From a bacterium (GTDB taxonomy: Bacteria > Bacteroidota > Ignavibacteria > Kapaibacteriales > UBA2268): 64,000 nucleotides of DNA. The notes beneath the pieces are model-generated. The model ran no database searches, was not told where the DNA came from, and saw only the letters and a list, made by a program, of their open reading frames with translations. Made by a program: the position numbers and the translations under genes. The stretch spans positions 27,636 through 91,635 of the forward strand of contig JBAXXL010000007.1 of assembly GCA_037127915.1 (NCBI GenBank), written 5' to 3'. Below are positions 2,214-47,791 of the stretch, one piece after another (position 1 is the stretch's first letter; every line of letters begins with the position of its first letter).

Positions 2214-4241
2214 TTAATCCCTAAGACAACGGACAGAGAACCCATTCTCCTTAATACCGTAGTACCTTACAAGAGCGGAAAGATTATAATTCAGACTCCT
2301 GCCCCAAGCAGTCGTAGTAACGCTCTCAGTAGAGCTCCACCAGTAACCGAAGCCTCCAACATCATTGAAAATACCATTGTGATAGCGATAGCCGCCCGGG
2401 AGAGCTGAAAAGCCACTTTCATTTGTAGCTCCTGTATTAGGATTAGACCATAGACCATCACCAAATTCAATTGTGCCTGTTGCTTTTAATTTTCCTCCGG
2501 CAATATTGTCCCCACCTAAACAGTCGGATAATACTGCCCATTCCGCATAGCTTGGCATATGCCAACCTGCAGGAGCTAAGCCACGCGGGTCATTTACTGC
2601 GTACCAATTGTAAAGTTTGCCGTAAGTAGCACCCATTTCTGGGTCATTATTATAAAAGCACCACGCTCCAGTGGTCAATTTTGACCATTTTAAAGAATCT
2701 CTAACCTCAGGAATTGGAGTTCCATCGCGGTATGTATCAACATCCAAATTACACCCCATCCATATTTGGTTTCCAATTTTAACATCTGGACAAGTCTCAT
2801 AATAAACAGTTTTAGTTGTTACTCTTGCAAAGCATTGATTACTCGGAGTATTCGGAACACGCCATTGATAAGCTAATCCTGTTGCGTTTTGAGTAATTAG
2901 AATCCAATTCGCTCCATTGTCTGTGCTATATTCTATTTTAACTTTTTCTTCAGGTATTACGCCTTCCCAAGTGATTATTGTATCGTTACCTACAGCTAAT
3001 ATTTCACTACCATTCGGTTCGATTAGTTTTAAAGTCTGAATTTTTGCTTTTTTTCCCGAGAAACCACCACTCGCATAATAATATACAGGACATTTATCAT
3101 TCTCTAAAGTGAATTTTGTAAAAGAATACCCGCTATCCGCCGGCAAGTAACTTACAGTTAAGTTTATGCTCTGACCTGAAGTAAGTATAAAATTTGTTGG
3201 TGAAATAGAATACGCAGCATTGGTAGATGTAATATTTGTAACATTGAAATCTGCATTTCTGGCTGTTACGATAACTGTTGTATCTTTATTTATTCCGGGA
3301 TTGGCATTTAAAAATTTAACTGATTTGGGTGAAAATTCTAATTTTGCTATTGAATTATCAGGTTGTTGATAGCTTGTATTTGAGATTAAATTTAATGATG
3401 TTATCTTTACTTCGACATTTGTTATACCAGCTTTGCAGGTAATCCCGCTTTGCCATTCGATTTGGCAGGGAACGCCACCTTGGGCCATCTGCAATAAATT
3501 CAAATAGGTTAACCGCGCTTCATCAATTGATGTTACATTCTCGAAATATTGTCCGCCTGTTTGTAATGCTATGTCTTTTAAACTTTGCGGAGTCGGCATA
3601 TTCAATGTTACTACATAAACAGTTACATTCTGAGCAAGTGCTTCAGAAATTATTTTTGATGTTAGAGGTTCTTGATTGGGTTGCCCATCCGAGAGAAACA
3701 CAATAACTCTTTTATACTTTGCATTTTGAGTAATTAGTAATCCGCCTGCCATAGAATTCAGCATCGCCGCATCATAATCTGTGCCACCACCGGCAAAAAG
3801 AGAATTTGCTTTTTGTAACAAAAGGGTTCTATCAGTTGTAAAATCCTGAATTAGATAGTTTCGAGAATTAAATGCAGTAATGGCACATTCGCTCTTTCCC
3901 AGTGGTAAACATTCAATCCAAGCTTTTGCCGCCGATTTTGCTAAATTCAAATTACCGGCACCCATTGAACCAGAAGCATCCATAACAAGTACACTCGATA
4001 ATGCTATTGGTGGTTTAGGGCTTGGGCAACTCACATTGGTAATAGTTCTCGGCTGTCCATTTTCAGTTATATTAAAATCAGAATTTGAGAGATTGGTGAT
4101 TTGATTTCCAGCGGCATCGAAAGCATAAAGATTTGCTTTGATGGTTGGAAATGCCGAAGCGTCAACATTAAAAACAGATAAACTCTGGCTATATGCTGTA
4201 TAGCAGAGGAAAAATATAATTATGTAGATGATTCTTTTCAT
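2214..4241 (-). CDS. Array paralog 1 (VWA subtype A): signal peptide, N-terminal module, VWA domain (DASGSM MIDAS), Ig-like domains, PNGGE/ITWEG beta-sandwich, C-terminal FISUMP domain (TIGR02145-like)
   Basis: 675-aa ORF. N-terminus MKRIIYIIIFFLCYTAYSQ is a signal peptide. VLVMDASGSM...VIVFLSDGQPN is a VWA/MIDAS signature. The C-terminus IWMGCNLDVD...KLYNWYAVND..GLAP.GWH.PS..EW..L...GG....GKLK.TG....W..PNTGATNESGFSALPGGYR...YWWSS...GFSVRCLRD matches the Fibrobacter succinogenes major paralogous domain pattern. Confidence 0.85.
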   Translation of the reverse strand: MKRIIYIIIFFLCYTAYSQSLSVFNVDASAFPTIKANLYAFDAAGNQITNLSNSDFNITENGQPRTITNVSCPSPKPPIALSSVLVMDASGSMGAGNLNLAKSAAKAWIECLPLGKSECAITAFNSRNYLIQDFTTDRTLLLQKANSLFAGGGTDYDAAMLNSMAGGLLITQNAKYKRVIVFLSDGQPNQEPLTSKIISEALAQNVTVYVVTLNMPTPQSLKDIALQTGGQYFENVTSIDEARLTYLNLLQMAQGGVPCQIEWQSGITCKAGITNVEVKITSLNLISNTSYQQPDNSIAKLEFSPKSVKFLNANPGINKDTTVIVTARNADFNVTNITSTNAAYSISPTNFILTSGQSINLTVSYLPADSGYSFTKFTLENDKCPVYYYASGGFSGKKAKIQTLKLIEPNGSEILAVGNDTIITWEGVIPEEKVKIEYSTDNGANWILITQNATGLAYQWRVPNTPSNQCFARVTTKTVYYETCPDVKIGNQIWMGCNLDVDTYRDGTPIPEVRDSLKWSKLTTGAWCFYNNDPEMGATYGKLYNWYAVNDPRGLAPAGWHMPSYAEWAVLSDCLGGDNIAGGKLKATGTIEFGDGLWSNPNTGATNESGFSALPGGYRYHNGIFNDVGGFGYWWSSTESVTTTAWGRSLNYNLSALVRYYGIKENGFSVRCLRD

Positions 4242-4462
4242 AAAAACCTTTTCTTTTCTTTTAATGCTAGTGCTAAATTATCATAATTTTATATATTAAA
4301 CAAATATTTCTTTATATCTATTTCGGCTAAAGCCGATTAAAACTTTTTTATCTTTTTCCACGACTTAAAAGTCGTGGCAACTAATTTCTTTCTATCTTTT
4401 TCTTCTTCTACTACTCTCTTATCTTCTTCTATTTAAAAACTTTACAAACTTTACGAACTCAT
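4242..4462 (-). repeat. Conserved inter-paralog spacer, copy 1. Read on the minus strand it is: stop codon, (ACTTTRYRA)n short tandem repeats, TCTTC-rich microsatellite, hairpin CCACGACTTAAAAGTCGTGG (4358..4377), hairpin TCGGCTAAAGCCGA (4323..4336), AT-rich promoter region, then the start of the next paralog
   Basis: Near-identical at the nucleotide level to 6533..6741 and 8791..8986 and largely to 11000..11212. Confidence 0.8.
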
Positions 4463-6532
4463 TTAATCAGTTACACAACGAACAGAGAAACCATATTCCT
4501 TATAATATGCGCCATTGTGAAGAGCCGTAAAATTACAATCCAAGTAAAAGCCATTTGCACTATCGGTATCCTTCTCATCAGAAGTCCACCACATTCCGAG
4601 GTATCCAGCATAGTCGAAAGTTCCATTGATATAACGGAGGCTCCCCGGGATAGCGGAAAAGCCGCTTTCGTTTGTAGCGCCGGTATTAGGAAAATCCCAT
4701 AAACCATCACCTTCGGATTTGGTTCCGGTGCTTTTTAATTTACCACCTCCTTCATCACCTACACATGCATATAATTTAGACCATTCTGCAACGGAGGATA
4801 TATGCCAACCTACTGGTGCTAAACCACGCGAATCATTAACTGCATACCAATTATATAATTTGCCATAGATTTTACCCATAGCAGGATCATTCCTGTAATA
4901 GCACCACGCGCCGGTGGTTAATTTTGACCATTGTGTTGAATCTCTAACCTCAGGTATTGAATCACCGTTACGGTAATGATCAACATCCAAATTACATCCC
5001 ATCCAAATTTGGTCACATATTTGAACATCTCCAATATCGCATCCCAAATACTCATATCCAAGTTTTGTAGTTACTCTTGCCAAGCACTGATTACTTGGTG
5101 TTTTTGGGATTTTCCAATTATAACTTAATCCTGTTGCAGAGTCTGCTATTGTTAGCCAATCCGTACCGTTATTCGTTGAATATTCCAACTTTACTTTTTC
5201 TTCGGGTATTACTCCTTCCCAAGTTATTACAGTGTCGTTTCCAACTGCTAAAACTTCCCCACCGTTCGGTTGAATGAGTTGTAATGTTTGTAATTTTGGT
5301 TTTTTTCCGGGAAATCCTCCGCTAGCAAAATAATTTGCTGTGCATACATCGTTCTCAAAAACAAATTTTGTATAAGTATAACCACTATCCACTGGAATAA
5401 ATCTTATCGTTAAATTTGTGCTTTGACCTGAATTTAAAACAAAGTTATATGGAGTAATAGTAAAAGCCGGATTTGAACTTGTAACGTTATTTATATTATA
5501 ATAAGAATTGACTGCTTTTATGCTGATATTTATATCTCTTGGAACTCCCGGTAAGGCATTAAGTATTTTTACCGATGAAGGAGAAAATTCTAATTTGGCA
5601 ACTGAATTGTTTGGTGATGGGTAGTCGAATCGTGCAATCAGTTTATTTGGTATTAACTTTATATTTACATTCGTAATGCCTGATATACAAGAGGCTTTGC
5701 TTTTCCATTGGATTTGGCAGGGACCGCTACCTTGGGCTTGCGCTTGTATGCGATTCGCTAAATCCTCAGCGGCAATTTTACTTGTGATACCATCGTATAA
5801 AAAACCTCCGGTTGCATCGGCTAATAATTGTAATGATTTCTTTATTCCGTTTGGTTCAGCTTCAGGTCTTGAATAAATTACTGCGTAAAATTGAATATTA
5901 TATTTGGAACAAGTATCTTTACACGCTTGAAGTTCGTTTTCACCTAGAGCAAACCACCAAGCATCGGTATATAGAATTGCCACTCGCTTGTATTGTCCTT
6001 TTTTCGCAATATTTAACAAACCTGCTAATGGATTTAATAAGTGTTCAACAAAATCATTATCACCATTAGCTATAATTGGTAATATTTTTGATAATAACAG
6101 CACCCTATTCGTTGTGAAATCTTGGACAATCAACGCTTGGTCGTTGCAAGTTTGTAAAGCGAATTCTGAAGGCGGCATAGGAATATTTTTACAAAGTTCT
6201 CTGGAAGTCGTTTTACCAAGTTCAACAGGAATTTCACCCGATAAACCTCCCCGCATAGATCCTGACACATCAATACTCATGGCTATTGAAACCTTTAACG
6301 AAGGATTAGGCTCAGGGCAACTCGTATTAGTTACAGTTCTTGACTGCCCATTTTCAGTTATGCTAAAATCAGAATTGGAGAAGTTTATGATTTGATTCCC
6401 AGACCCATCAAAAGCAAAGAAATTTGCTTTGATGGTAGGAAATTCCGAAGCATCAACATTAAATACAGATAAACTCTGGCTATATGCTGTATAGCAGAGA
6501 AAAAATATAATTATGTAAATGATTCTTTTCAT
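4463..6532 (-). CDS. Array paralog 2 (VWA subtype B variant): same architecture, C-terminal FISUMP domain
   Basis: 689-aa ORF. The first 40 aa are nearly identical to paralogs 1 and 3 at the nucleotide level. Middle region IAMSIDVSGSM...KRVAILYTDAWW is a divergent VWA-like domain; the C-terminus ends GFSVRCVTD. Confidence 0.85.
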   Translation of the reverse strand: MKRIIYIIIFFLCYTAYSQSLSVFNVDASEFPTIKANFFAFDGSGNQIINFSNSDFSITENGQSRTVTNTSCPEPNPSLKVSIAMSIDVSGSMRGGLSGEIPVELGKTTSRELCKNIPMPPSEFALQTCNDQALIVQDFTTNRVLLLSKILPIIANGDNDFVEHLLNPLAGLLNIAKKGQYKRVAILYTDAWWFALGENELQACKDTCSKYNIQFYAVIYSRPEAEPNGIKKSLQLLADATGGFLYDGITSKIAAEDLANRIQAQAQGSGPCQIQWKSKASCISGITNVNIKLIPNKLIARFDYPSPNNSVAKLEFSPSSVKILNALPGVPRDINISIKAVNSYYNINNVTSSNPAFTITPYNFVLNSGQSTNLTIRFIPVDSGYTYTKFVFENDVCTANYFASGGFPGKKPKLQTLQLIQPNGGEVLAVGNDTVITWEGVIPEEKVKLEYSTNNGTDWLTIADSATGLSYNWKIPKTPSNQCLARVTTKLGYEYLGCDIGDVQICDQIWMGCNLDVDHYRNGDSIPEVRDSTQWSKLTTGAWCYYRNDPAMGKIYGKLYNWYAVNDSRGLAPVGWHISSVAEWSKLYACVGDEGGGKLKSTGTKSEGDGLWDFPNTGATNESGFSAIPGSLRYINGTFDYAGYLGMWWTSDEKDTDSANGFYLDCNFTALHNGAYYKEYGFSVRCVTD

Positions 6533-6741
6533 AAAACCTTTTCTTTTCTTTTAATGCTAATGCTAAATTATCATAATTTTATATATTAAACAAATATTTC
6601 TTTATATCTATTTCGGCTAAAGCCTATTAAAAACTTTTTTCTATTTTTTCCACGACTTAAAAGTCGTGGCAATTAATTTTTTCTATCTTCTTCTTCTTCT
6701 CTTTATGAACTTTAAAAACTTTATAAACTTTATAAACTAAT
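6533..6741 (-). repeat. Conserved inter-paralog spacer, copy 2 (hairpin CCACGACTTAAAAGTCGTGG at 6650..6669; the second hairpin is disrupted by a point change, AGCCTA)
   Basis: Alignment by eye with 4242..4462. Confidence 0.8.
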
Positions 6742-8790
6742 TTAATCCCTTATACAGCGAACGGCGAAGCCAATTTCTTTTCTATCAATATACTTGTTAA
6801 TATATGAGTAATAATAATCCAGTCCTCTAATCCATGCATATCCGGTATTGTACTCAGTATTGCTCCACCAGTAACCGAGATAAGCCATATTATAGAATAA
6901 CCCATTGTTTCCGCGGTAACCGCCAGGAAGAGCCGAAAATCCAAATGCATTTGTGGCGCCTTCATTAGGACTATGCCATAAACCATCTCCCGCTTCAATT
7001 GTACCGGTACTTTTCAATTTACCGCCGGCTGTAGTTGATCCTCCAAGACAATTTTCTAATTCAGTCCATTCTGCTTCGGTAGGAATATGCCAGCCATAAG
7101 GAGCCAAACCCCTTGGATCGTTCACTGCATACCAATTGTAAAGTTTTCCATAAATTGCACCCAAAGACGTGTCATTATTATAATAACACCATGCACCTGA
7201 TCTTAGATTTGCCCATATTGTTGAATCAGTAACTTCTGGGATTGGTGTGCCATCACGATATTTATCTACATCTAAATTACAACCCATCCAAATTTGGTTA
7301 CATGTTTGGACATCAGGACAGGTAAATTCATAACCTATATTGGCAGTCACTCGTGCCAAGCATTCATTGCTCGGTGTCTTGGGGACACGCCAATTATAAG
7401 CCAATCCGGTTGCATTTTTTGCTACAAGAATCCAATTCAAACCATTATCAATACTATATTCAATATTGACTTTCTCTTCGGGTAATACTCCTTCCCAAGT
7501 TATTACGGTATCGTTTCCGACAGCAAAAAATTCACCACCATTTGGTTGAATGAGTTTTAAAGTCTGTATTTTTGGTTTCTTTCCAGGGAAACCTCCGCTC
7601 GCATAAAAATTGGTTGGGCAAATATTATTTTCAAATGCAAATTTTGCATATGTATAGCCACTGTCCAAAGGGAAATAACTTACTGTCAAATCTTTGCTTT
7701 CACCTGATTTAAGGAAAAAGTTTGTTGGTGTAATAGAATACGCTGTGTTTGTGCTTATTATATTTTGTACATTGAAATCAGCATACTTTGCTGTAACTGT
7801 AATGGTTGTATCTTTTTTTATACCGGGTTTTGCATTATTAAATTTAATAGACGATGGTATTATTTCCAGCTTAGCAACCGTCGAGTTTGGTGATTGATAG
7901 CTTGTGTATGATTTTAAATTATTTGGAATTAGTTTTAATTCTATATTAATTAATTCCGACACACAAGAAACTCCGCTTGTCCATTCTATCTGACATGGTT
8001 CGCCTCCTTGGACTTGCACCTGTATGCGATAAGCAATATCTTTCGCGGCGCTTAAACTCATTATACCATCGTAAAAATATCCGCCAGTGGCTTCGGCAAG
8101 TGATTGTAACGATTTTTTTATACCGTTTGGCTCCGCTTCCTGGTTAGAATAAATAACTGCGTAGAATTGAATACTAAATTTTTTACACGTATCAATACAT
8201 GCTTGGAGTTCACTTTGGTCCATTGCCTTCCACCAAGCATCAGTATATAAAACGGCAATTCGCTTGTTTTTTCCATTTTTTGCGATATTTAGCAAACCAT
8301 TTAATGGATTTAGTAAGTGCTCAACAAAATCATTTTCGCCGGTAGCTACAATTTGCGATATTTTTGATAACAACAATTCCTTGTTTGTTGTGAAATCCTG
8401 AATTATCAATGCTTTGTCGTTACAAGTTTGCAAGGCGAATTCTGATGGCGGCATAGGAACAGTATTACAAAGATCGCCGGCTGTTATTTTTCCGAGCTCA
8501 ACGGCAGTAGTCATAGAACCAGATACATCGATACTCATCGCTATTGAAACCTTTTGCGGCGTAATAGGATTAGGACAAATCACATTTGTAACCGTTCTCA
8601 ATTGGCCATTTTCTGTTATACTAAAATCAGAATTTGTTAGGTTTGCAATAGGCTTTCCTTTGACATCCAAAGCATAAAAATTTGCTTTGATAGTCGGAAA
8701 TGCAGAAGCGTCAACATTAAACAAAGATAAACTTTGGCTATATGCTGTATAACAGAGGAAAAATATTATTATGTAGATGATTCTTTTCAT
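6742..8790 (-). CDS. Array paralog 3 (VWA subtype B variant): same architecture, C-terminal FISUMP domain
   Basis: 682-aa ORF, MKRIIYIIIFFLCYTAYSQSLSLFNVDASAFPTIKANFYALD..., IAMSIDVSGSM, ending GFAVRCIRD. Confidence 0.85.
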   Translation of the reverse strand: MKRIIYIIIFFLCYTAYSQSLSLFNVDASAFPTIKANFYALDVKGKPIANLTNSDFSITENGQLRTVTNVICPNPITPQKVSIAMSIDVSGSMTTAVELGKITAGDLCNTVPMPPSEFALQTCNDKALIIQDFTTNKELLLSKISQIVATGENDFVEHLLNPLNGLLNIAKNGKNKRIAVLYTDAWWKAMDQSELQACIDTCKKFSIQFYAVIYSNQEAEPNGIKKSLQSLAEATGGYFYDGIMSLSAAKDIAYRIQVQVQGGEPCQIEWTSGVSCVSELINIELKLIPNNLKSYTSYQSPNSTVAKLEIIPSSIKFNNAKPGIKKDTTITVTAKYADFNVQNIISTNTAYSITPTNFFLKSGESKDLTVSYFPLDSGYTYAKFAFENNICPTNFYASGGFPGKKPKIQTLKLIQPNGGEFFAVGNDTVITWEGVLPEEKVNIEYSIDNGLNWILVAKNATGLAYNWRVPKTPSNECLARVTANIGYEFTCPDVQTCNQIWMGCNLDVDKYRDGTPIPEVTDSTIWANLRSGAWCYYNNDTSLGAIYGKLYNWYAVNDPRGLAPYGWHIPTEAEWTELENCLGGSTTAGGKLKSTGTIEAGDGLWHSPNEGATNAFGFSALPGGYRGNNGLFYNMAYLGYWWSNTEYNTGYAWIRGLDYYYSYINKYIDRKEIGFAVRCIRD

Positions 8791-8986
8791 AAAAACTTTT
8801 CGTTTCTTTTAATGCTAGTACTAAATTATCATAATTTTATATATTAAACAAATATTTCTTTATATCTATTTCGGCTAAAGCCGATTAAAACTTTCTTTTC
8901 TTTATCCACGACTTAAAAGTCGTGGATATTGATTTCTTTCTATCTTCTTCTTCTCTTTAAAAACTTTATGAACTTTACAAACTGAT
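8791..8986 (-). repeat. Conserved inter-paralog spacer, copy 3 (hairpins at 8871..8884 and 8906..8925)
   Basis: Alignment by eye with 4242..4462. Confidence 0.8.
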
Positions 8987-10999
8987 TTAGTCCACAATAC
9001 AACGAACTGAAAAACCATATTCTTTAAAACCATAAACTCTATAACCATAAGCACTACTGCAGGTTAAATATCTTTGCCATCCATAAGGTTCAGAACTAGA
9101 TGTAGCTGTCCATAAATCAGCGTCATTTCTAACTCCACTAAATCGTCCGTCATTATACCGGAAGCCTCCGGGTAAAATAGATAAACCACTCGAATTTGTT
9201 GCTCCGGTATTTGGACTATTCCATAAGCTAGTACCGGTACTCTTCATTTTGGCACCTGCGACAACCAAGCCACCAAGAAAATTTTCAAGTTTACTCCATT
9301 CTTCATCGCTTGCCAGATGGTATCCATCTGGTGCCAAACCACGGGAATCGTTGAGGGCGTACCAATTATAAAGCTTACCATACACATCACCCATTGCCGG
9401 ATCGTTGTTGTAATAACACCAAGCACCCGTTTTTAGATTTTTCCATTCAGTTGGGTCTTTTACTTCGGGAATTGGATCGCCATTTCTATAAGTATCGACA
9501 TTTAAATTACAACCCATCCACGTTTGATTACCTATTGCAACATCGGGACAAGGTGGTATATAAGGCGAATTTGCGGTTATTCTGGCTAAGCATTGATTAC
9601 TTGGAGTCTTTGGTACCCGCCATAAGTAATTTAGTCCCTTCGATGATTTTGAAAGAAGTATCCAGTCCGCACCATTATTTGTACTGTATTCAAGTCTTAC
9701 ATCTTCCTCCGGCAAAACACCTTCCCAAGATATTAGAGTATCTGATCCAACAGCTAATACTTCACCACCGTTAGGTTGTAGAAGTTTTAAAGTTTGTATT
9801 TTTGGCTTTATACCAGGGAATCCACCGCTCGCATAAAAATAAGTTGGACATTGATTATTTTCAAGTGTGAATTTGCAGTAAGTATAACCGCTATCTGCCG
9901 GAACATAACTTACTATAAGATTAGTACTTTGTCCATTTTCAAGGATAAAGCTTGATGGGGCGATTGTAAATGAAGGACTTGTAGATATAATATTAGTTAT
10001 ATTAAAATCTGAATTTATGGCTTTGACAGTAATTGTCGCGTCTTTTTTTATTCCGGGAATTGCGTTTAAAAATTTTACTGAAGCAGGATTAATTTCCAGA
10101 TTAGCTATTGAATTTACTGGTGGTTGGTAATAGTTAAATGCTGTTAGATTTAATGGTATAAGCTTAAAATTCAGATTAGTCAAACCGGTTTTACAGGATA
10201 CTCCGCTCTTCCATACAATTTGACATGGACTTTCAACTTGGGCGGTCTTTAAAATAACACGGTAACATTGTTCAGCTTCTTCCTTGGTTTTTATATTTTC
10301 GAAATACATACCACCCGTTTGCGATGCAAAATCCTTCATACATTGGGGTGCCGGCATATTTAAAGTAACACAATAAATAGCAATATTGTTAGCCTTAGCC
10401 TCGCTAATTATTTCAGCTGTTTTTGGCTCGGAAGTAGGATCTCCATCAGATAGAAAAACGACAACTCTTTTATGCTTGCCTGTTTTTGCAATTAGAAGCC
10501 CACCACCGACATGGTCTATCATTGCGGCATTGTAGTTTGTACCACCAAAAGTAGTCAAATTATTAATAACAGCAATTAAATTAGGTTTATCTTTAGTAAA
10601 ATCTTGATTAATATAATTATTATCGCTGAAACTTGTTATAGCGCATTCTGAATTATTATCGGGTAGCATATTAATCCATTCAATAGCCGCAGATTTAGCC
10701 ATATCAAGACCAAATCCTTGCATTGAACCGGATATATCGATGACCAATACGCTGGATAATACTTCGGGAATTCTCGGGCTTGAACAAATCACATCTGTAA
10801 TTGTTCTTGCTTGTCCATTTTCCTTCACTTCAAAATCTGAAGGAGTGAGGTTTATAATTTGATTTCCAGTGGCATCCAAAGCATAAAAATTTGCCTTGAT
10901 GGTCGGAAATGCTGACGCATCAACATTAAACATAGATAAACTCTGGCTATATGCTGTATAACCAAATAATAAAAAGAGTATATAAATTGTTTTCTTCAT
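8987..10999 (-). CDS. Array paralog 4 (VWA subtype A): same architecture, C-terminal FISUMP domain
   Basis: 670-aa ORF, MKKTIYILFLLFGYTAYSQ signal peptide, VLVIDISGSM...VVVFLSDGDPTSEP VWA/MIDAS, ending GFSVRCIVD. Confidence 0.85.
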   Translation of the reverse strand: MKKTIYILFLLFGYTAYSQSLSMFNVDASAFPTIKANFYALDATGNQIINLTPSDFEVKENGQARTITDVICSSPRIPEVLSSVLVIDISGSMQGFGLDMAKSAAIEWINMLPDNNSECAITSFSDNNYINQDFTKDKPNLIAVINNLTTFGGTNYNAAMIDHVGGGLLIAKTGKHKRVVVFLSDGDPTSEPKTAEIISEAKANNIAIYCVTLNMPAPQCMKDFASQTGGMYFENIKTKEEAEQCYRVILKTAQVESPCQIVWKSGVSCKTGLTNLNFKLIPLNLTAFNYYQPPVNSIANLEINPASVKFLNAIPGIKKDATITVKAINSDFNITNIISTSPSFTIAPSSFILENGQSTNLIVSYVPADSGYTYCKFTLENNQCPTYFYASGGFPGIKPKIQTLKLLQPNGGEVLAVGSDTLISWEGVLPEEDVRLEYSTNNGADWILLSKSSKGLNYLWRVPKTPSNQCLARITANSPYIPPCPDVAIGNQTWMGCNLNVDTYRNGDPIPEVKDPTEWKNLKTGAWCYYNNDPAMGDVYGKLYNWYALNDSRGLAPDGYHLASDEEWSKLENFLGGLVVAGAKMKSTGTSLWNSPNTGATNSSGLSILPGGFRYNDGRFSGVRNDADLWTATSSSEPYGWQRYLTCSSAYGYRVYGFKEYGFSVRCIVD

Positions 11000-11212
11000 A
11001 AGATTTCTTTCAATTTCTTTTTAACTTATTGCTTATTTTCTTTTTTTACTCATCCGATGAGTTGATATTTCTTTGCTTATTTATTTCGGCTAAAGCCGAT
11101 TAAAACTTTCAATAATTTTCCACGACTTAAAAGTCGTGGCTACTAATAATTTTAAATTTTCTTCTTATCTTCTTATCTTCTTCTCTTTATGAACTTTCCG
11201 AACTTTATGAAC
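11000..11212 (-). repeat. Conserved inter-paralog spacer, copy 4 (hairpins at 11087..11100 and 11120..11139, plus an ACTCATCCGATGAGT palindrome at 11048..11062)
   Basis: Contains all three conserved hairpin/palindrome elements. Confidence 0.8.
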
Positions 11213-13288
11213 TTATTTCATCCTTATGCAACGTACTGAAAATCCATTCTCATAATAATGAGTACTTCTGCCAATAATAGATGCGTCAGTACCTATTCTC
11301 CTATAATATGCGGTTTTGGAACCAAAATCAGTAGATGTCCAAAAGTAGGCATCGACGCCGATGTTTAGAAAATCGCTGACGTGGTACCGGTAACCTCCGG
11401 GAACAGCAGCAAAACCGGTTTCATTTGTTGCACCGTTGTTTGGACTAAACCACAAACCATCACCCGTTTCTATAGTACCCATACTTTTCAATTTTCCTCC
11501 GGCAATATCTTTCCCGCCAATACAGTTTTCTAATTCGGTCCATTCTTCATCGCTCGGTACATACCAGCCTGCAGGAGCTAAACCCCGTGGATCGTTTACT
11601 GCATACCAATTGTATAGTTTTCCGTAAATTTCTCCATTTTTTGGATCATTATTATAATAGCACCAAGCTCCCGTTGTTAAGGCTCGCCATTCTAAAGGGT
11701 CAGAAACTTGAGGAATTGGATCGCCATTGCGGTAATGAGCAACATTAAGATTACAACCCATCCAAAATTGATTACATATTAGCACATCACTGTTATCACA
11801 ACTGATTTCAGTTGTAGCATTAGCAGTAATTCTTGCTAAGCATTGTGTACTTGGTGTTTTCGGTATCCTCCACTTATAAAAAAAATCTGTTCCTGAATCG
11901 GTGATTGTAGTCCATTTCAAACCATTATTAGTGCTATATTCAATTTTCACAGGGTCATCGGGCATAACACCTTCCCAAGTTATTAGAGAATCTGCACCTA
12001 CTGAAAACACTTCACCGCCGTTGGGTTCCATCAAATTTATAGTTTTTGTTTTGGGCTTTTTTCCCTTAAACCCTCCACTTACGTACAATTTCGATAAACA
12101 TTTATCGCTTTCGAATGTTATAACATTAAACTCATAACTGCTGTCTGCTGGAAGATAATAAATCTTTAGATTTCTCCTTTGGCCTTTAGCTAGAAAAAAA
12201 CTCTGAGGAATTACAGAAAAATCAGGATTTGAACAGGTTACGTTAGTTACTGTAAAATCGGTATTATTTGCGAATACCGAAACCGTTGAATCTACTTTGA
12301 TTCCGGGGGTTGGATTTAAAAATACAACAACCGGTGGATTAATTACTAATGCGGCACCGGACCTAATAGGTGCTTCGTATCTAGTTTGAGCTGTTAATGC
12401 ATGCTTACTATCAGTAATTTCGACATTTGTCCAATCTCCTTTACAAAATATTCCACTTTCCCACTCGATTTCACAGAATTTGCCATCTTGAATAATGGTT
12501 TGTAAACGTTTTGCTAAAGCCGTTGCGGCTCCTGCACTCGTAATACCGTCAAATAATAACCCGCCTGTTGCATCGGCTAATGTTTGCAACGATCTTTTTA
12601 TTCCATTTTTATCAGTTTCGGGACTAGAATAAACTACTGCATAAAACTTAATCTTATTAGCTACACAAATATCTTTACAGGTTTCAATCTCACTTTGAGT
12701 TAAGCCAATCCACCCGGCATCGGTGAATAGTACTACATTATGTGTGTAGATTCCTCTTTTTATGATATTTAACAATCCGGTTAAGGGGTTTAGCAGTTGT
12801 TCAACAAAATCATTTTCATTAGAAGTACTAATTGTTTCAATTGCTGAAAGATATTTTGCATTATCAGTAGTGAAATCTTGAACTATCAAAGCTTTTGAAT
12901 TACAAATTTGTAATGCAAATTCGGAAGGCGGCATGATTATGCTGTTAGCTAGTTCTTTTGCTGTGATTTTTGCTAGATCAAAAGGTATATAACCATGCTC
13001 ATCATAAGACATGGAACTTGAAACATCGATACTTATTGCGACCGATACAGCATTAAGAGTATTTTCATTCGAACAATCTACATTAGTAGGCGTCCTAGGG
13101 AATCCGTTTTCGGTTATTTTGAAATCACTAACTGAAAAATTTGTTATAGGATCGCCATTAGAATCAAAGGCAATAAAATTAGCTTTAATTGTCGGAAATG
13201 CCGAAGCATCAACATTAAATACTGATAAACTCTGGCTATATGCTGTATAACCAAATACAAAAAAAAGTATGTAAATCAATTTTCTCAT
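11213..13288 (-). CDS. Array paralog 5 (VWA subtype B variant): same architecture, C-terminal FISUMP domain. The likely true start is the internal Met (MRKLIYILFFVFGYTAYSQ) at 13288, not the 13351 start of the longest ORF
   Basis: The ORF track gives 11213..13351 (712 aa), but the first 21 residues (MFKLKKNDNLVIGKKRNWKSS) precede the conserved signal peptide shared by all paralogs. The ATG at 13286-13288 restores the family N-terminus. VAISIDVSSSM MIDAS-like; ends GFSVRCIRMK. Confidence 0.8.
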   Translation of the reverse strand: MRKLIYILFFVFGYTAYSQSLSVFNVDASAFPTIKANFIAFDSNGDPITNFSVSDFKITENGFPRTPTNVDCSNENTLNAVSVAISIDVSSSMSYDEHGYIPFDLAKITAKELANSIIMPPSEFALQICNSKALIVQDFTTDNAKYLSAIETISTSNENDFVEQLLNPLTGLLNIIKRGIYTHNVVLFTDAGWIGLTQSEIETCKDICVANKIKFYAVVYSSPETDKNGIKRSLQTLADATGGLLFDGITSAGAATALAKRLQTIIQDGKFCEIEWESGIFCKGDWTNVEITDSKHALTAQTRYEAPIRSGAALVINPPVVVFLNPTPGIKVDSTVSVFANNTDFTVTNVTCSNPDFSVIPQSFFLAKGQRRNLKIYYLPADSSYEFNVITFESDKCLSKLYVSGGFKGKKPKTKTINLMEPNGGEVFSVGADSLITWEGVMPDDPVKIEYSTNNGLKWTTITDSGTDFFYKWRIPKTPSTQCLARITANATTEISCDNSDVLICNQFWMGCNLNVAHYRNGDPIPQVSDPLEWRALTTGAWCYYNNDPKNGEIYGKLYNWYAVNDPRGLAPAGWYVPSDEEWTELENCIGGKDIAGGKLKSMGTIETGDGLWFSPNNGATNETGFAAVPGGYRYHVSDFLNIGVDAYFWTSTDFGSKTAYYRRIGTDASIIGRSTHYYENGFSVRCIRMK

Positions 13289-13422
13289 AGAACTTTTCCA
13301 ATTTCTTTTTTTTCCTATAACTAAATTATCATTTTTTTTTAGTTTAAACAAATATTATTTCTAATTTCTTTTTCTTCCTACTTTATGAACTTTACGAACC
13401 TGATAAACTTTATAAACTATGT

Positions 13423-15456
13423 TTAATCTTTTACGCATCGTACTGAAAAACCATTGTCCTTACCGCTAGACCCTTTGCCAATAACTGTGTTTGTTGACGA
13501 TAGATTCCTAAACCAAGCTCGTGTAGCATTAAAATTGGAAGAACTCCACCAATAACCAGCAATCTCAAAACGGTCGAAAACTCCATAATTAAATCTATAA
13601 CCTCCTGGCTGAGCAGAAAATCCGCTTTCATCAGTTCCTCCATCATTGGGGCTTCGCCATAAACCATCATAGTTCTCAATTGTACCTGAAATTTTTAATT
13701 TTCCGCCTGCTAAATCGGCACCTCCTAAGCATTTTTCTAATTCTGCCCATTCAGCATCCGAAGGGATATGCCAACCTTTGGGAGCTAATCCACGCGGATC
13801 ATTCACAGCATACCAATTGTATAATTTTCCATAGACCTTCCCCATCGCCGGGAAATTATTATAATAACACCAAGCACCGGTTGTAAGGTTAGCCCACACA
13901 GTTGGGTCGGTAACCTCGGGTATAGGGTCGCCATTACGGTAGGTATCCACGTCAAGATTACAACCCATCCAAACTTGATTACAAATAAGTACATTCCCAT
14001 TATCACAGCCGAATATCGAATTTGTATTTGCTGTTACTCTTGCCAAACACTTATTACTTATAGTATTGGGTACCCGCCATTTGTAGTTTAACCCGCTCGC
14101 GGTATCTGCTATGAGAATCCAATTCGCGCCATTATTAGTACTGTAATCAATACTGACTTTATCTGTTGGTAGAATACCATCCCAAGTTATCAAAGTATCG
14201 GAACCAACCGGAAATGCTTCTCCACCATTTGGTTTAATTAGCTCAATTGATTTTGATGCCGGTTTCTTTCCAGGGAAGCCACCGCTCACAAAATAATTAG
14301 TAGGGCACTTATTATTTTCAAAAGTATATTTAGCATACGAATAGCTACTGTCAGATGGTAAAAAGCTAACCGTCAAATCCAGGCTTTCTCCTGAATTAAG
14401 CTTAAATTTGGTTGGAGTTATAGTAAAATCAGGATTTGAACTTGTAATATTGGTAAGATTGAAATCTGCGTTTATGGCAGTTGCGGTTACCAATGTATCT
14501 TTCTTAATTCCCGGAATAGCTTTTGAAAATTTTACATTAGGCGGTGTGAACTCGATTCGGGCTAAACCACTATTTGGTAATATATAATTAGTTTTGGCAC
14601 TTATGTTATTTTGGACAAGATTAATTTCAACATTTCTTATTTCCGCTTTACAAGAAACTTCGCTCAACCATTCAATTTGACAGGGTTCGCCGCCTTGTGC
14701 ATTGTATAATATTTTTCGGTAATAATCTTCGGCTTCTTCCTTGTTTTTGACGTTTTCAAAATATAATCCTCCTGTTTGATTTGAAAAATCCTTCATACAT
14801 TGAGGAGCGGGCATATTTATTGAAATACAGTATATAGTGATATCATTGGCATTGGCTTCACTGATTATTTTGAAAGTTTGCGGTTCAGTACTTGGATCAC
14901 CGTCAGACAGAAATACAATAACTCGTTTGTATTTTCCAGTCTTTGCAATTAATATTCCTCCTGCTTCCGGGTCTATCAATGCCGCATTATATTTAGTTCC
15001 TTTCTTGATTGTTAAACTATTAATTCCATTAATTAACTTCGATTTTTTTGTTGTGAAATCCTGATTAAGATAATTAATCTCACTGAAACTAGTAATTGCA
15101 CATTCGGATTTACCCAATGTTATCAAATCTATCCAAGCATAAGCCGCCGCTTTGGCGATATTAAGACCATATTCTGCCATTGAACCTGATACATCCATTA
15201 CTAAAACGGATGATAATGGAATAGGCGGTGTAGGATTTGGACAATTTACACCTGTAACAATTCGCGATTGCCCATTTTCAGTTACGCTAAAATCAATTGG
15301 TAATAAGTTTGTAATTTCATTCCCTGCGGCATCAAATACAAAGAAATCAGCTTTAATTGTTGGAAATGACGAAGTATCAACATTATATACTAAAATACTC
15401 TGGCTATACGCTGTATAACCTAATAAAAATAATACTATGTAAATTGTTTTTCTCAT
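13423..15456 (-). CDS. Array paralog 6 (VWA subtype A): same architecture, C-terminal FISUMP domain
   Basis: 677 aa, MRKTIYIVLFLLGYTAYSQ, VLVMDVSGSM...VIVFLSDGDPSTEP, ends GFSVRCVKD. Confidence 0.85.
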   Translation of the reverse strand: MRKTIYIVLFLLGYTAYSQSILVYNVDTSSFPTIKADFFVFDAAGNEITNLLPIDFSVTENGQSRIVTGVNCPNPTPPIPLSSVLVMDVSGSMAEYGLNIAKAAAYAWIDLITLGKSECAITSFSEINYLNQDFTTKKSKLINGINSLTIKKGTKYNAALIDPEAGGILIAKTGKYKRVIVFLSDGDPSTEPQTFKIISEANANDITIYCISINMPAPQCMKDFSNQTGGLYFENVKNKEEAEDYYRKILYNAQGGEPCQIEWLSEVSCKAEIRNVEINLVQNNISAKTNYILPNSGLARIEFTPPNVKFSKAIPGIKKDTLVTATAINADFNLTNITSSNPDFTITPTKFKLNSGESLDLTVSFLPSDSSYSYAKYTFENNKCPTNYFVSGGFPGKKPASKSIELIKPNGGEAFPVGSDTLITWDGILPTDKVSIDYSTNNGANWILIADTASGLNYKWRVPNTISNKCLARVTANTNSIFGCDNGNVLICNQVWMGCNLDVDTYRNGDPIPEVTDPTVWANLTTGAWCYYNNFPAMGKVYGKLYNWYAVNDPRGLAPKGWHIPSDAEWAELEKCLGGADLAGGKLKISGTIENYDGLWRSPNDGGTDESGFSAQPGGYRFNYGVFDRFEIAGYWWSSSNFNATRAWFRNLSSTNTVIGKGSSGKDNGFSVRCVKD

Positions 15457-15491
15457 AAAAATCTATTCTAATTTCTTATTTCTCATTTTTT

Positions 15492-15527
15492 TTCTTCTCT
15501 TCTTCTCTTCTTCTCTTCTTCTCTTCA
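15492..15527. repeat. Microsatellite (TTCTTCTC) about 4.5 units, immediately followed by (AACTTTATGA)-type 9-10 bp tandem repeats to 15575
   Basis: Direct reading: ttcttctcttcttctcttcttctcttcttctcttc then aactttatgaactttatgaactttacaaactctataaac. Confidence 0.8.
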
Positions 15528-15578
15528 TCTTTACTAACTTTATGAACTTTATGAACTTTACAAACTCTATAAACTCAT

Positions 15579-17612
15579 TTAGTCTTTAATGCACCTGACC
15601 GAAAATCCATTTTCTTTTTTACTATAGCTCCTCGTGACGCTCGTAGTGGTATATGACATACCTCTTAACCAAGCATTTGCTTTATCATACTCCGATGAGC
15701 TCCACCAATAACCACTACTGCCAAGGTTATCGAAAGCCCCGTAAGCAAAGCGGTACCCGCCGGGTAATGCTGAAAAACCGAACTCGTCAGTAGCTTCGGT
15801 ATTTGGATTATACCATAATCCATCTCCATTTTCTATTGACCCTGTACTTTTTAGTTTCGCCCCCGCAATCGTTACACCGCCAAGACAGAATTCCAAATCT
15901 CGCCAATCCGTATCACTCGATATATGCCAACCTTGAGGAGCTAAGCCCCGTGGGTCGTGAACAGCATACCAATTGTACAACTTACCATATTTTGCTTCCA
16001 TTCCAGGGTCGTTGTTATAATAACACCAAGCACCGGTTTTCAAATTTATCCAATCAGTAGGGTCTTGTACTTCAGGAATTGGATCGCCATTGCGATAGTG
16101 ATCCACATTAAGATTGCACCCCATCCAAATCTGCGAACATATTCGTATTTCGCTATTTTGGCAATCGTAAATTGAAGAAGTCTTGGCTGTTACCCTAGCC
16201 AAACATTTATTACTCGGAGTTTTAGGTACCCGCCATTTATGAATTAACCCCTTTGCAGTATCCGATATTTGTAACCAATTTAAACCATTATTAGTGCTAT
16301 ATTCTAATTGCACTTCCTCATCCGACATTATTCCTTCCCAAGTTATCACAGTATCGCTTCCTACCGCGAATACTTCACCGCCATTGGGGCTTATTAGTTT
16401 TAACGTTTGTGTTTTTGGTTTCTTACCCGGAAAACCACCACTTGCATAATACTTTGTCGGGCATATATCATTCTCGAAAGTGAATTTTGTATAAGTATAA
16501 CCACTATCTACGGGTAGATAACTTATAGTTAACACTTTGCTTTGACCTGCATTTAAAATAAAACTTGTTGGATTCATTGTAAAAGCCGGATTGGAACTGA
16601 TAACATCAGTTATATTAAAATCAGCATTTACTGCTTTGATGGTTATGGATGAGTCTTTAGGAATTCCGGGTATAGTTTTTAATAACTTGATCGACATTGG
16701 GTCAAATTCTAATTGCGCAATCGCACTATTTGGTGATTGGTAGCTGGCGTTTGCAGTTGTATTATTTGCTATCAGTTTTAATGCTACATCCGTTATACCG
16801 GATTCACAGGAAATTCCGCTTTCCCAACCAATTTGGCAAGGATCTCCACCTTGTGCAGTAATTAATATTTCTCTATAACACCCTTCGGCTTCTTCATTTG
16901 TTCTAATATTCTCAAAAAACAATCCTCCCGTTTTATTAGAAAATTCCTTCATACATTGAGGAGCCGACATTCTGATTGCAATACAGTATATTGTTATATC
17001 ATTGGCAATTGCAGTACTAATAATCTTTGCTGTATCAGGCTCAAAATTGGGTTCCCCGTCTGAAAGCAAAAGGATGACCCTTTTGTATTTACCCCTATTG
17101 GCAACCAAAATACCGCCTGACATAGCATCTAACATTGCGGCATTATAGTTTGTTCCCTGCATGCAGGTTAAACTATTAATCCCATTCTTCAACTTTGATT
17201 TATCAACTGTGAAATCCTGATTGAGATAATTCGCATCACTGAAACTTGTTATAGCACATTCAGAATTCCCGGCTGGAAGCATATCAACCCAAACATTAGC
17301 CGCCGCTTTGGCAATGTCAAGACCTTTGCCGCTCATAGAACCCGATACATCCATAACTAAAACAGAGGATATTATAATCGGTGGTTTTATCTCAGGACAG
17401 CTCACAAAAGTTATTTTTCTAGGCTGTCCGTTTTCAGTTAATTCAAAATCATTTGGTAATAAGTTTGTCAATTGACTACCCTTTAGATCGAAGGCAAAAA
17501 AGTTCGCCTTGACATTCGGGAATCCCCCAGCATCGACATTGGAAATAGATAAGCTCTGGCTATATGCGGTATAGCTTAATAAAAAGAATACTATGTAAAT
17601 TATTTTTCTCAT
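15579..17612 (-). CDS. Array paralog 7 (VWA subtype A): same architecture, C-terminal FISUMP domain
   Basis: 677 aa, MRKIIYIVFFLLSYTAYSQ, VLVMDVSGSM...VILLLSDGEPNFEP, ends GFSVRCIKD. Confidence 0.85.
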   Translation of the reverse strand: MRKIIYIVFFLLSYTAYSQSLSISNVDAGGFPNVKANFFAFDLKGSQLTNLLPNDFELTENGQPRKITFVSCPEIKPPIIISSVLVMDVSGSMSGKGLDIAKAAANVWVDMLPAGNSECAITSFSDANYLNQDFTVDKSKLKNGINSLTCMQGTNYNAAMLDAMSGGILVANRGKYKRVILLLSDGEPNFEPDTAKIISTAIANDITIYCIAIRMSAPQCMKEFSNKTGGLFFENIRTNEEAEGCYREILITAQGGDPCQIGWESGISCESGITDVALKLIANNTTANASYQSPNSAIAQLEFDPMSIKLLKTIPGIPKDSSITIKAVNADFNITDVISSNPAFTMNPTSFILNAGQSKVLTISYLPVDSGYTYTKFTFENDICPTKYYASGGFPGKKPKTQTLKLISPNGGEVFAVGSDTVITWEGIMSDEEVQLEYSTNNGLNWLQISDTAKGLIHKWRVPKTPSNKCLARVTAKTSSIYDCQNSEIRICSQIWMGCNLNVDHYRNGDPIPEVQDPTDWINLKTGAWCYYNNDPGMEAKYGKLYNWYAVHDPRGLAPQGWHISSDTDWRDLEFCLGGVTIAGAKLKSTGSIENGDGLWYNPNTEATDEFGFSALPGGYRFAYGAFDNLGSSGYWWSSSEYDKANAWLRGMSYTTTSVTRSYSKKENGFSVRCIKD

Positions 17613-17666
17613 AAGATTTTTCTTAATGCACTTTTCTAATTTCTTTTAAATTTTATACTATGTTTT

Positions 17667-17699
17667 ACTCATCGGATGACTCGAAGTCATCGGATGAGT
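17667..17699. promoter_or_regulatory. Palindromic element ACTCATCGGATGACT-cga-AGTCATCGGATGAGT upstream of paralog 7
   Basis: 15-bp arms, one mismatch; 55-87 nt upstream of the 17612 start codon. Confidence 0.5.
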
Positions 17700-17707
17700 T
17701 TAAAGAT

Positions 17708-31616: not shown

Positions 31617-31682
31617 TATTGTTTCCTAAAATGATTATTAAAATTTCTTCTAAATTATAAAAATAAATATGATCGATATGGA

Positions 31683-46242: not shown

Positions 46243-46294
46243 AATAAATCTTCCCTTTTATTAAAAAAATGAAATTAATTTTCTAAATTTATTA

Positions 46295-46315
46295 AATGTA
46301 AAATTAAAAAAAATT
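46295..46315 (-). promoter_or_regulatory. Shared 21-nt AT-rich motif AATGTAAAATTAAAAAAAATT (plus strand) upstream of T9SS cargo gene 44617..46242
   Basis: A near-identical copy lies at 49955..49976 upstream of gene 47792..49924. Confidence 0.4.
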
Positions 46316-46330
46316 CTGATATGTTGTACT

Positions 46331-47734: not shown

Positions 47735-47791
47735 AATTTAACTCTCAAAATTTCACATTAGAAAGTATAAAATCACTTAGTTTGCAGAATG

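Follow-up and report, generated by a model that had tools for sequence, protein, structure and literature searches.

When neighboring genes are nearly identical in some segments and barely alike in others, have they been duplicated recently, are they still being shuffled, or do the identity blocks record much older exchanges? This question is raised by a tandem gene array in a 64,000-nucleotide (nt) stretch of an uncultured Kapaibacteriales genome (assembly GCA_037127915.1, contig JBAXXL010000007.1, positions 27,636 to 91,635), referred to here as the window. The array comprises eight paralogs, p1 to p8, on the minus strand (2214-22111, repeat period ~2.15-2.29 kb), each encoding a protein with a von Willebrand factor type A (VWA) domain of one of two types, A or B. 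A first-pass annotation of 2214-13288 interpreted the mosaic identity pattern as ongoing gene conversion or recent duplication, as in antigenic-variation families; its span covers p1 to p5, but the array itself extends to 22111 (p8). Our analyses make it probable that this is an old tandem family in which recombination between paralogs mixed the backbones of the two types or swapped their VWA modules, and in which the starts of some genes were homogenized more recently. The genes, in window coordinates, are:

2214..4241, minus strand: p1, open reading frame (ORF) of 675 amino acids (aa), A-type VWA; Pfam VWA 53.9 bits, Fib_succ_major 159.7 bits
4463..6532, minus strand: p2, 689 aa, B-type VWA, architecture of p1; VWA_2 only 21 bits, under the cut-off
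6742..8790, minus strand: p3, 682 aa, B-type VWA
8987..10999, minus strand: p4, 670 aa, A-type VWA
11213..13288, minus strand: p5, 691 aa counted from the ATG, B-type VWA, the most divergent B copy
13423..15456, minus strand: p6, 677 aa, A-type VWA
15579..17612, minus strand: p7, 677 aa, A-type VWA
17708..22111, minus strand: p8, 1467 aa, N-module with A-type VWA and type IX secretion system (T9SS) sorting tail, without FISUMP domain

All eight are full-length ORFs, each with its own ATG and signal peptide. The products of p1-p7 (670-691 aa) share one order of domains: signal peptide, a small N-domain of ~60 aa with beta structure, VWA, an immunoglobulin (Ig)-like domain of the ASH/HYDIN-like kind, a beta domain of ~90 aa with the Asp-box motif YSTxNGxxW, and FISUMP. 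The assignment of the VWA domains to class A (p1, p4, p6, p7 and p8) or class B (p2, p3 and p5), which the first-pass annotation had proposed, was confirmed by Pfam and by class-specific hidden Markov models, which scored ~260-340 bits on their own class and 60-100 bits on the other. The A-type copies pass PF00092 (34.7-53.9 bits, cut-off 23.8), and the B-type copies stay below the Pfam threshold (best VWA_2 scores 21-26.4 bits, cut-off 27). The difference between the classes is confined to a sharply bounded island in each gene:

3492..4001, minus strand: VWA divergence island of p1 (residues 81-250)
5744-6292, minus strand: VWA island of p2
8020-8550, minus strand: VWA island of p3
10250-10759, minus strand: VWA island of p4
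12500-13048, minus strand: VWA island of p5
14707-15216, minus strand: VWA island of p6
16863-17372, minus strand: VWA island of p7
21362-21871, minus strand: VWA island of p8

Between A and B copies of the window, nucleotide identity was mostly 35-50% inside the island (range 33-53%) and 55-80% in the flanks. The same contrast was found across the family. A search with p2 returned 147 homologs (E <= 1e-10). After the N-module they continue into FISUMP, FGE-sulfatase, WD40 or long T9SS-type C-termini, and each lectin-type head is found with A-type as well as with B-type VWA domains. In 122 aligned proteins (77 A and 45 B), identity of the VWA segment was 0.55 within and 0.28 between types, and the nearest neighbor was of the same type in 100% of cases. 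Outside the VWA the types were hardly distinguishable, with identities within and between VWA types of 0.55 and 0.53 for the N segment, 0.48 and 0.46 for Ig, and 0.59 and 0.58 for the mid segment. Nearest neighbors in these three segments were of the same VWA type in 61-67% of cases (random expectation 53%), and only 42-53% of the B-type proteins had a B-type nearest neighbor there. Scanned in 10-residue windows, identity within minus identity between types rose from +0.03 to +0.37 at p1 residue 81 and fell from +0.26 to +0.02 at residue 251; the FISUMP domain had no A/B differentiation. Two anciently diverged versions of the VWA domain coexist in every array examined.

Evidence that the flanks have recombined came from comparison of the window with two other arrays. 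Array J (L006, a JGI metagenome contig) has the gene order A-B-B and is collinear with p4-p3-p2 at ~70% nt identity. Array K (L007; ERZ4223250 NODE_215) is from a second genome of the same sample, has a different genomic context and is ordered B-A-A-[TIG-FISUMP]-A-B-A-A(FGE)-...-A(WD40). Other genomes likewise carry both VWA types, in differing orders and with differing C-terminal modules (FISUMP, FGE-sulfatase, WD40). Trees, permutation tests and the pairwise homoplasy index (PHI) were computed on the 16 genes of the three arrays (120 pairs), and window-only runs on seven paralogs. The sliding-window identity check that the first-pass annotation had suggested did find identity blocks that contradict the whole-gene relationships. 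The A-type p1 was 78-84% identical to the B-type J2 and J3 over codons ~275-450 and 35-55% in the VWA, and its nt identity to them was ~80% across 590-714 nt. Similarly, p2 peaked at 83-91% with J2/J3 over codons 175-250, and p5 was 79-85% identical to J3 solely in the last part of FISUMP. The pair J2-J3 was 84-93% identical over codons 75-250 and mostly 76-93% on to codon 450, with ends at 54-75%. Beyond these arrays, the backbone of p1 (N, Ig and mid segments) was closest to the B-type proteins P0003 and P0005 (74-81%).

The trees conflicted in the same manner. Neighbor-joining bootstrap supported a B-type clade in the VWA at 100%; support in the Ig segment went to p1 (A) with J2 (B) and J3 (B) at 84% and to K1 (B) with K4 (A) and K6 (A) at 88%, and in the C-terminal half of FISUMP to p5 with J3 at 100%. 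A GENECONV-like permutation test returned 14 globally significant fragments (p <= 0.05, corrected over the 120 pairs). They include p1-J3 over codons 267-518 (80% versus 66% overall), p2-J2 over codons 186-262 (89% versus 72% overall), J2-J3 over codons 75-465, and two B/A pairs from a single genome, K1-K6 and K1-K4. The PHI on whole genes gave z = -23, with most of the signal from the VWA block; we rejected this value as sole evidence, since PHI can also drop where strongly compatible VWA sites form a block, even if no recombination has occurred, and reran the test on sub-regions. On the flanks of the 16 genes it gave z = -4.8 (p = 0.001), and in the VWA island alone there was no signal of recombination (p = 0.86), which indicates that the flanks recombine and the VWA core does not. 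Most of these events are old, since the proportion of synonymous differences (pS) within the shared fragments was 0.28-0.61. Segmental gene conversion or cassette shuffling, as first proposed, is thereby supported as the evolutionary history of the family, in which VWA type is uncoupled from flank phylogeny, mosaic fragments are significant and 5' ends are homogenized, but it is not supported as an ongoing process.

A second and different pattern was observed at the gene starts, in three blocks:

4127..4462, minus strand: homogenized 5' block of p1 (the whole upstream spacer and ~first 115 nt of coding sequence)
6418-6741, minus strand: homogenized 5' block of p2
8676-8986, minus strand: homogenized 5' block of p3

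The spacers upstream of p1, p2 and p3 were 92-93% identical over 194-207 aligned nt (90-92% in a multiple alignment), and the coding starts were 88-94% identical over the first 100 nt and 81-87.5% over the first 200 nt. The earlier estimate of ~90% identity for the spacers and first ~200 nt thus applies to the spacers and first 100 nt but is too high for the full 200 nt. The recurrent antisense pseudo-ORFs noted at the same time are real: PFSV(I/M)LKSE recurs at 4057, 6348 and 8606 as the reverse translation of a conserved stretch. Per 30-nt bin, identity was 79-100% from -210 to +90 (96-100% around -120 to -90), then dropped to 57-77% in the +120 bin and to ~60% by +210, so that the tract begins at the upstream stop codon and ends at ~nt +115. 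The longest exact matches in the array, 62-74 nt, lie in these blocks. Across the three arrays the first 105 nt grouped by genome, independently of gene lineage and VWA type: p1, p2 and p3 were 89-94% identical, K1, K2, K3, K4 and K6 87-92%, and genes of different genomes 70-82%. Over codons 1-36, pS was 0.24-0.48 in p1-p3, 0.18-0.32 in K and 0.09 in J1-J3, compared with ~0.6-0.7 downstream. This grouping of the gene starts by genome, with pS lowered in them, indicates that the 5' ends have undergone gene conversion. Paralogs of one genome that are closer to each other in one segment with lowered pS there, together with supported mosaics and tree conflict, are the pattern of concerted evolution. 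The converted tract is itself already 6-12% diverged.

The gene bodies are much older. By the Nei-Gojobori method, pS was saturated at ~0.55-0.85 in all pairs and segments of the window, except for codons 1-35 of p1/p2/p3 (0.24-0.48) and of p5/p6 (0.20), and the longest exact matches inside gene bodies were 12-34 nt. Several genes have closer VWA relatives in other genomes than in the window: p7 with P0024 (85%), p6 with P0036 (81%) and p8 with P0100 (81-86%). Recent duplication, one of the two original proposals, is excluded for the gene bodies by this saturation, by the shortness of the exact matches and by the closer relatives of p6, p7 and p8 elsewhere.

Could this pattern have arisen without recombination? 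In such a scenario a single ancient duplication produced A and B, the VWA diverged quickly through a functional shift, the flanks evolved slowly and lost their signal, and the likeness of the 5' ends reflects purifying selection only. Consistent with it, two hairpins and a promoter-like box in the spacers are kept across the three genomes, the VWA block dominates the whole-gene PHI, and PHI for the seven window paralogs without the VWA was not significant at codon positions 1+2 (p = 0.13; p = 0.01 with all positions). The last result is one of several that weigh against our interpretation. Only one within-window fragment was globally significant, p1-p2 over codons 8-74 (global p = 0.016 over 120 pairs), and the recombination signal within the window is weak outside the VWA boundaries and the 5' block. 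The spacers are also similar between genomes (84-88% with J, 80-85% with K6). Saturation of the synonymous sites limits the dating of the events, and strain-level comparison is limited to two near-identical assemblies of the locus. Furthermore, the 122-protein set was gathered with the B-type query p2, and its A members may have flanks more like those of p2 than is typical, an effect that would level out differences between the flanks of the two types; the proportions of nonsynonymous differences (pN) in the window paralogs, and likewise the three arrays, are independent of that set and showed the same A/B pattern. We nevertheless consider an origin without recombination unlikely. It would have to accommodate incompatible splits with 84-100% bootstrap, the identity of the A-type p1 to the B-type J2/J3 over hundreds of nt next to a VWA that differs, the grouping of the B-type K1 with A-type genes of its own genome downstream of the VWA, and the small share of B-type proteins whose flanks are nearest to another B. 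Nor can selection at the protein level explain 5' ends that cluster by genome with lowered pS. As the spacers are better kept between genomes (80-88%) than coding sequence (~70%), purifying selection on regulatory elements and homogenization within genomes both contribute to their similarity.

The opposite explanation, that the array is an actively shuffling cassette system or a set of recent duplications with ongoing antigenic or phase-like variation in the style of pilE/pilS, vls or msp2, is to our minds very unlikely. It has in its favor the tandem direct repeats of surface-type protein genes, the mosaic fragments across the family and the homogenized 5' blocks of p1-p3, whose exact matches could still support RecA-dependent exchange. 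Yet the array consists of eight complete genes, of which p1, p2, p3 and p5 also have the promoter-like element, and no truncated silent cassettes were found among them. No long near-identical tracts border the VWA island, as the 62-74 nt matches sit in the spacers and not beside it, and the synonymously saturated gene bodies share no exact match above 34 nt. Searches of the window's ORFs of >=120 aa yielded no recombinase, invertase or reverse transcriptase. The NCBI and ENA assemblies of the locus had the same sequence apart from one indel, and a third sample contained an identical p2. The interleaving of the types, which had been put forward as a sign of cassette shuffling, is no different from a random order: AAABABBA has five runs versus 4.75 expected (exact run test, P(>=5 runs) = 0.57). 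Together with the divergence of the 5' tract, these results leave both "ongoing" and the analogy to antigenic-variation families unsupported. A third explanation concerns the end of the FISUMP domain, where each of seven genes has a hypervariable stretch of 47 codons:

2244..2384, minus strand: hypervariable stretch of p1
4493-4633, minus strand: hypervariable stretch of p2
6772-6912, minus strand: hypervariable stretch of p3
9017-9157, minus strand: hypervariable stretch of p4
11246-11386, minus strand: hypervariable stretch of p5
13453-13593, minus strand: hypervariable stretch of p6
15609-15749, minus strand: hypervariable stretch of p7

The stretch sits between the motifs PGGYR and GFSVRC, is of constant length, has a column identity of ~0.19-0.38 in 73 homologs and on visual inspection is rich in N/Y/S/T/D/G. 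This is the position that diversity-generating retroelements (DGRs) mutagenize in this lectin fold, and no DGR was found in the window. Both Fib_succ_major/DUF1566 and FGE-sulfatase are folds known to be targeted by DGRs, which vary them at their C-terminal end (PMC5758913). The paralogs could accordingly be DGR targets whose C-terminal lectin-like stretch is mutagenized by retrohoming, giving the mosaic or variable pattern, and the fold, the constant length and the composition of the stretch all fit with this. We regard it as highly improbable and rejected it. A Pfam scan that covered 30 of the 34 non-array ORFs of >=120 aa in the 64-kb window gave no RVT match, and when the 3' ends of the genes were compared with the window by BLAST, no further copy turned up that could be a template repeat. 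The 141-nt stretches have a mean nt identity of 48% (40-58%) with 18 of 141 columns invariant, which is incompatible with a common template repeat, and retrohoming would leave the VWA island and the 5' tract unexplained.

In the interpretation that we prefer, an old family mixed by recombination, we hypothesize that homologous recombination between tandem paralogs, as non-reciprocal conversion and as crossovers in the conserved flanks, repeatedly mixed A and B backbones or exchanged whole VWA modules. RecA-type conversion and crossovers may be anchored in conserved stretches between the direct repeats, candidates being the spacer and signal-peptide region, the SDFxITENGQ and PCQIEW motifs that border the VWA, and the FISUMP core. 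Heteroduplex would stop at the VWA island, where A and B are only ~40-47% nt identical. The A/B difference would thus be confined to a bounded island because the VWA core is too diverged to recombine and is probably held distinct by selection, which probably keeps both variants of the metal ion-dependent adhesion site (MIDAS) in each genome. Separately and later, the spacer with its putative promoter and ~first 115 nt of coding sequence have been homogenized among p1, p2 and p3, as has a similar tract in the paralogs of other genomes.

The array is a surface-protein multigene family shaped by gene conversion, a kind that is already known. In Helicobacter pylori, the adhesin paralogs babA/babB, sabA/sabB and the Hop family evolve by gene conversion of 5' and 3' segments. 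As in those adhesins, ends here are homogenized per genome around a distinct central part that is predicted to bind ligands, with chimeras that would arise by RecA-type conversion; unlike them, the genes stand together in tandem, in a bacterium of the FCB group, what stays distinct is a VWA domain of two ancient types, and gene bodies are synonymously saturated with no switching observed. Dimorphic mid-regions are known from H. pylori vacA (m1/m2) and from the allelic dimorphism of Plasmodium msp1 and msp2. These resemble the array in having two deeply diverged, non-recombining versions of a segment within recombining flanks and sharp boundaries; however, they are alleles of one locus in a population, whereas the A and B types are paralogs side by side and shared across a phylum-level group. 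Neisseria pilE/pilS, Borrelia vlsE and Anaplasma msp2 are also surface-protein multigene families with segmental mosaicism, but the array lacks both an expression site served by partial, silent cassettes and long flanks of full identity, and its assemblies give no evidence of variation. We consider the array a clean natural case in which a deep, domain-sized dimorphism persists in mixing backbones, with promoters and signal peptides homogenized separately. It also holds a lesson for annotation, namely that block-wise identity in tandem paralogs need not mean recent duplication or active variation, and that synonymous saturation and cross-genome comparison separate old mosaics from such systems.

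What the two VWA types do can be approached through their predicted structure. The AlphaFold2 model of p2 had a mean pLDDT (predicted local distance difference test) of 87 and domain limits at 20-71, 81-266, 272-406, 416-489 and 503-688. In the modeled residues 81-266, strands and helices alternate as in a VWA fold, with pLDDT of 10-residue blocks mostly >90 and dips to 73-78. Foldseek matched this part to the VWA domains of integrin beta-I, ANTXR2, Mfa5, BatB and Rpn10 (E ~1e-9 to 1e-7) and also to PilB and SpaC. The B-type domain is therefore predicted from the model to have the Rossmann-like beta-alpha-beta VWA fold, and the cross-matches of the A and B hidden Markov models (60-100 bits) agree with this. 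Among sequences with a residue at the column, the A-type MIDAS is a complete DxSxS...T...D, with T in 73 of 75 and D in 74. In the B type the DxSxS is kept, Asn replaces Thr in 43 of 45 and the D is present in all 45 (DxSxS...N...D). The B-type VWA matches obtained from a library of 1.84 billion representative proteins lay nearly always at ~residues 80-270, most of them in proteins of 1200-2000 aa, which argues for an origin of type B inside this architecture and against its import from an unrelated family. The matches amounted to 54 representative clusters at E <= 1e-30, with scores that grade down to type A, a gradient suggesting that the wider family contains additional VWA classes.

From domain homology alone, the proteins are probably secreted and binding or adhesive, with a metal-dependent VWA site and a lectin-like head, although this ligand-binding function is a prediction. 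The FISUMP domain of p1-p7 scored 136-160 bits with PF09603 (cut-off 33.9), and p1 and p2 scored 87-101 bits with TIGR02145 (cut-off 41.65). The N-domain and VWA of p1 passed TIGR03436 (acidobact_VWFA; 83.1 bits, cut-off 81.25), and p2 failed (39 bits). The proteins thus resemble the FISUMP (TIGR02145/PF09603) and TIGR03436 families, but here both modules are fused and have the A/B dimorphism. Porphyromonas gingivalis Mfa5, Streptococcus sanguinis PilB, Lactobacillus SpaC and Bacteroides BatA/BatB share the VWA fold with MIDAS and a secreted or surface context, here a T9SS-rich region; the array proteins differ in their N-domain, VWA, Ig, Asp-box and FISUMP order, in the Thr-to-Asn change of the B copies, and in that p1-p7 have no T9SS sorting domain or pilin features. 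The DGR proteins Treponema TvpA (FGE-sulfatase) and Legionella LdtA (DUF1566/Fib_succ_major) are alike in C-terminal domain family (FISUMP here, FGE-sulfatase in sister paralogs of other genomes) and in the hypervariable position (PMC5758913), but the diversity of the array is carried by many diverged paralogs. No published description of the module fusion, the A/B dimorphism or this family was found in our literature searches on FISUMP and on Ignavibacteria VWA paralogs. The combination of VWA, Ig, Asp-box and C-type-lectin-like head, including a conserved MIDAS Thr-to-Asn variant, is, as far as these searches show, a previously undescribed architecture in uncultured Kapaibacteria/Ignavibacteria.

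In K, one N-module (N-domain, VWA, Ig and mid) is fused to FISUMP, to FGE-sulfatase (731 aa) and to a WD40 propeller (>1270 aa) at 14597-22058 of L007, and thus C-terminal module swapping accompanies the VWA dimorphism in that array. A bolder and rather doubtful extension is that the array is a recombination-built repertoire of two-headed binders, in which MIDAS-Thr and MIDAS-Asn VWA "cassettes" held by balancing or functional selection would be joined to interchangeable FISUMP/FGE-sulfatase heads or WD40, with hypervariable binding loops. If so, ligand-binding diversity of the sort that DGRs produce in this lectin fold would be reached here without a DGR.

The spacers of the array contain several conserved elements:

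4242-4462, 6533-6741, 8791-8986, 11000-11212, 13289-13422 and 15457-15578: spacers
4358..4377, 6650-6669, 8906-8925 and 11120-11139, minus strand: perfect hairpin CCACGAC-TTTTAA-GTCGTGG, all in array spacers
4273..4308, 6563-6598, 8821-8856 and 13321-13356, minus strand: promoter-like element AATATTTGTTTAATA...ATAATTTAG of p1, p2, p3 and p5

The layout is common to the three genomes: stop codon, tandem AAAGTTYAT 9-mers, GAAGAA runs, two hairpins and the box. The 9-mers directly follow the stop codon and vary in copy number. The CCACGAC hairpin, with four sites in the window versus 0.01 expected by chance, is also in spacers of the two other genomes; the second hairpin is CGGC/TTTA/GCCG. The element AATATTTGTTTAATA...ATAATTTAG resembles the Bacteroidota TTTG / TAnnTTTG promoter and on this known consensus is a putative promoter; it is kept in the spacers of genomes J and K, and the spacer box reads TTTG...TAATTTAG. 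An Rfam scan of 1-23000 found no RNA families in the spacers. Scans for sigma-70 promoters and intrinsic terminators gave counts at chance level, and the spacer hairpin was terminator-like on the antisense strand only. The hairpins and 9-mer repeats could serve the array as signals for recombination or for regulation. A TTG at 13351 would lengthen the p5 ORF, and the extension (13289-13351) has no homology to the other paralogs. As the promoter-like box at 13321-13356 also overlaps it, the ATG at 13288 is the likely start of p5.

The signal peptides of p1-p7 end in ...YTAYS|QS, and ...YTAYSQS... is common to all paralogs p1-p8 (e.g., 4179-4241). The ~30 nt coding for YTAYSQSLS are kept even at synonymous sites in most paralogs. 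Predicted cleavage after AYS would leave an N-terminal Gln, in keeping with the "Q-rule" of Bacteroidota signal-peptidase-I substrates. In p8, the N-module is followed by a repeat region, choice-of-anchor-D Ig domains, fn3-like domains and the T9SS C-terminal sorting domain. Four copies of an 83-nt repeat family lie at 19914-20644, three at a spacing of 174 nt and the first 300 nt away; they encode ...DGGYIVAG...W(Q/E)K... units and are probably a beta-propeller-like repeat region.

The locus has a 100% match in contig CAZYBI010000007.1 of metagenome-assembled genome (MAG) GCA_964645665.1. A metagenome scan with p1 found only distant relatives (50-61% identity) and one marginal match (24%), and a scan of genome contigs returned mostly FISUMP-only Bacteroidota proteins, with only ~seven loci that aligned to the query over most of its length or over its N-terminal two-thirds. 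The annotations of homologs name Ignavibacteria, Kapabacteria or FCB-group bacteria. Several MAGs with members of the family or related FISUMP proteins (L010, L011, L015 and L017) are titled "uncultured Hyphomicrobiales bacterium", a label that looks wrong because the other members of the family are named Ignavibacteria or Kapaibacteria.

The neighborhood of the array is rich in genes for T9SS cargo with Por_Secre_tail domains, at 29229-33296 and 44617-49924 (both minus strand) and at 1-2160. The gene at 1-2160, just downstream of p1 (897 aa in L001), also bears a sorting tail. Another FISUMP protein is encoded at 44617-46242, in which the FISUMP domain is N-terminal and is followed by two Ig domains and a sorting tail.

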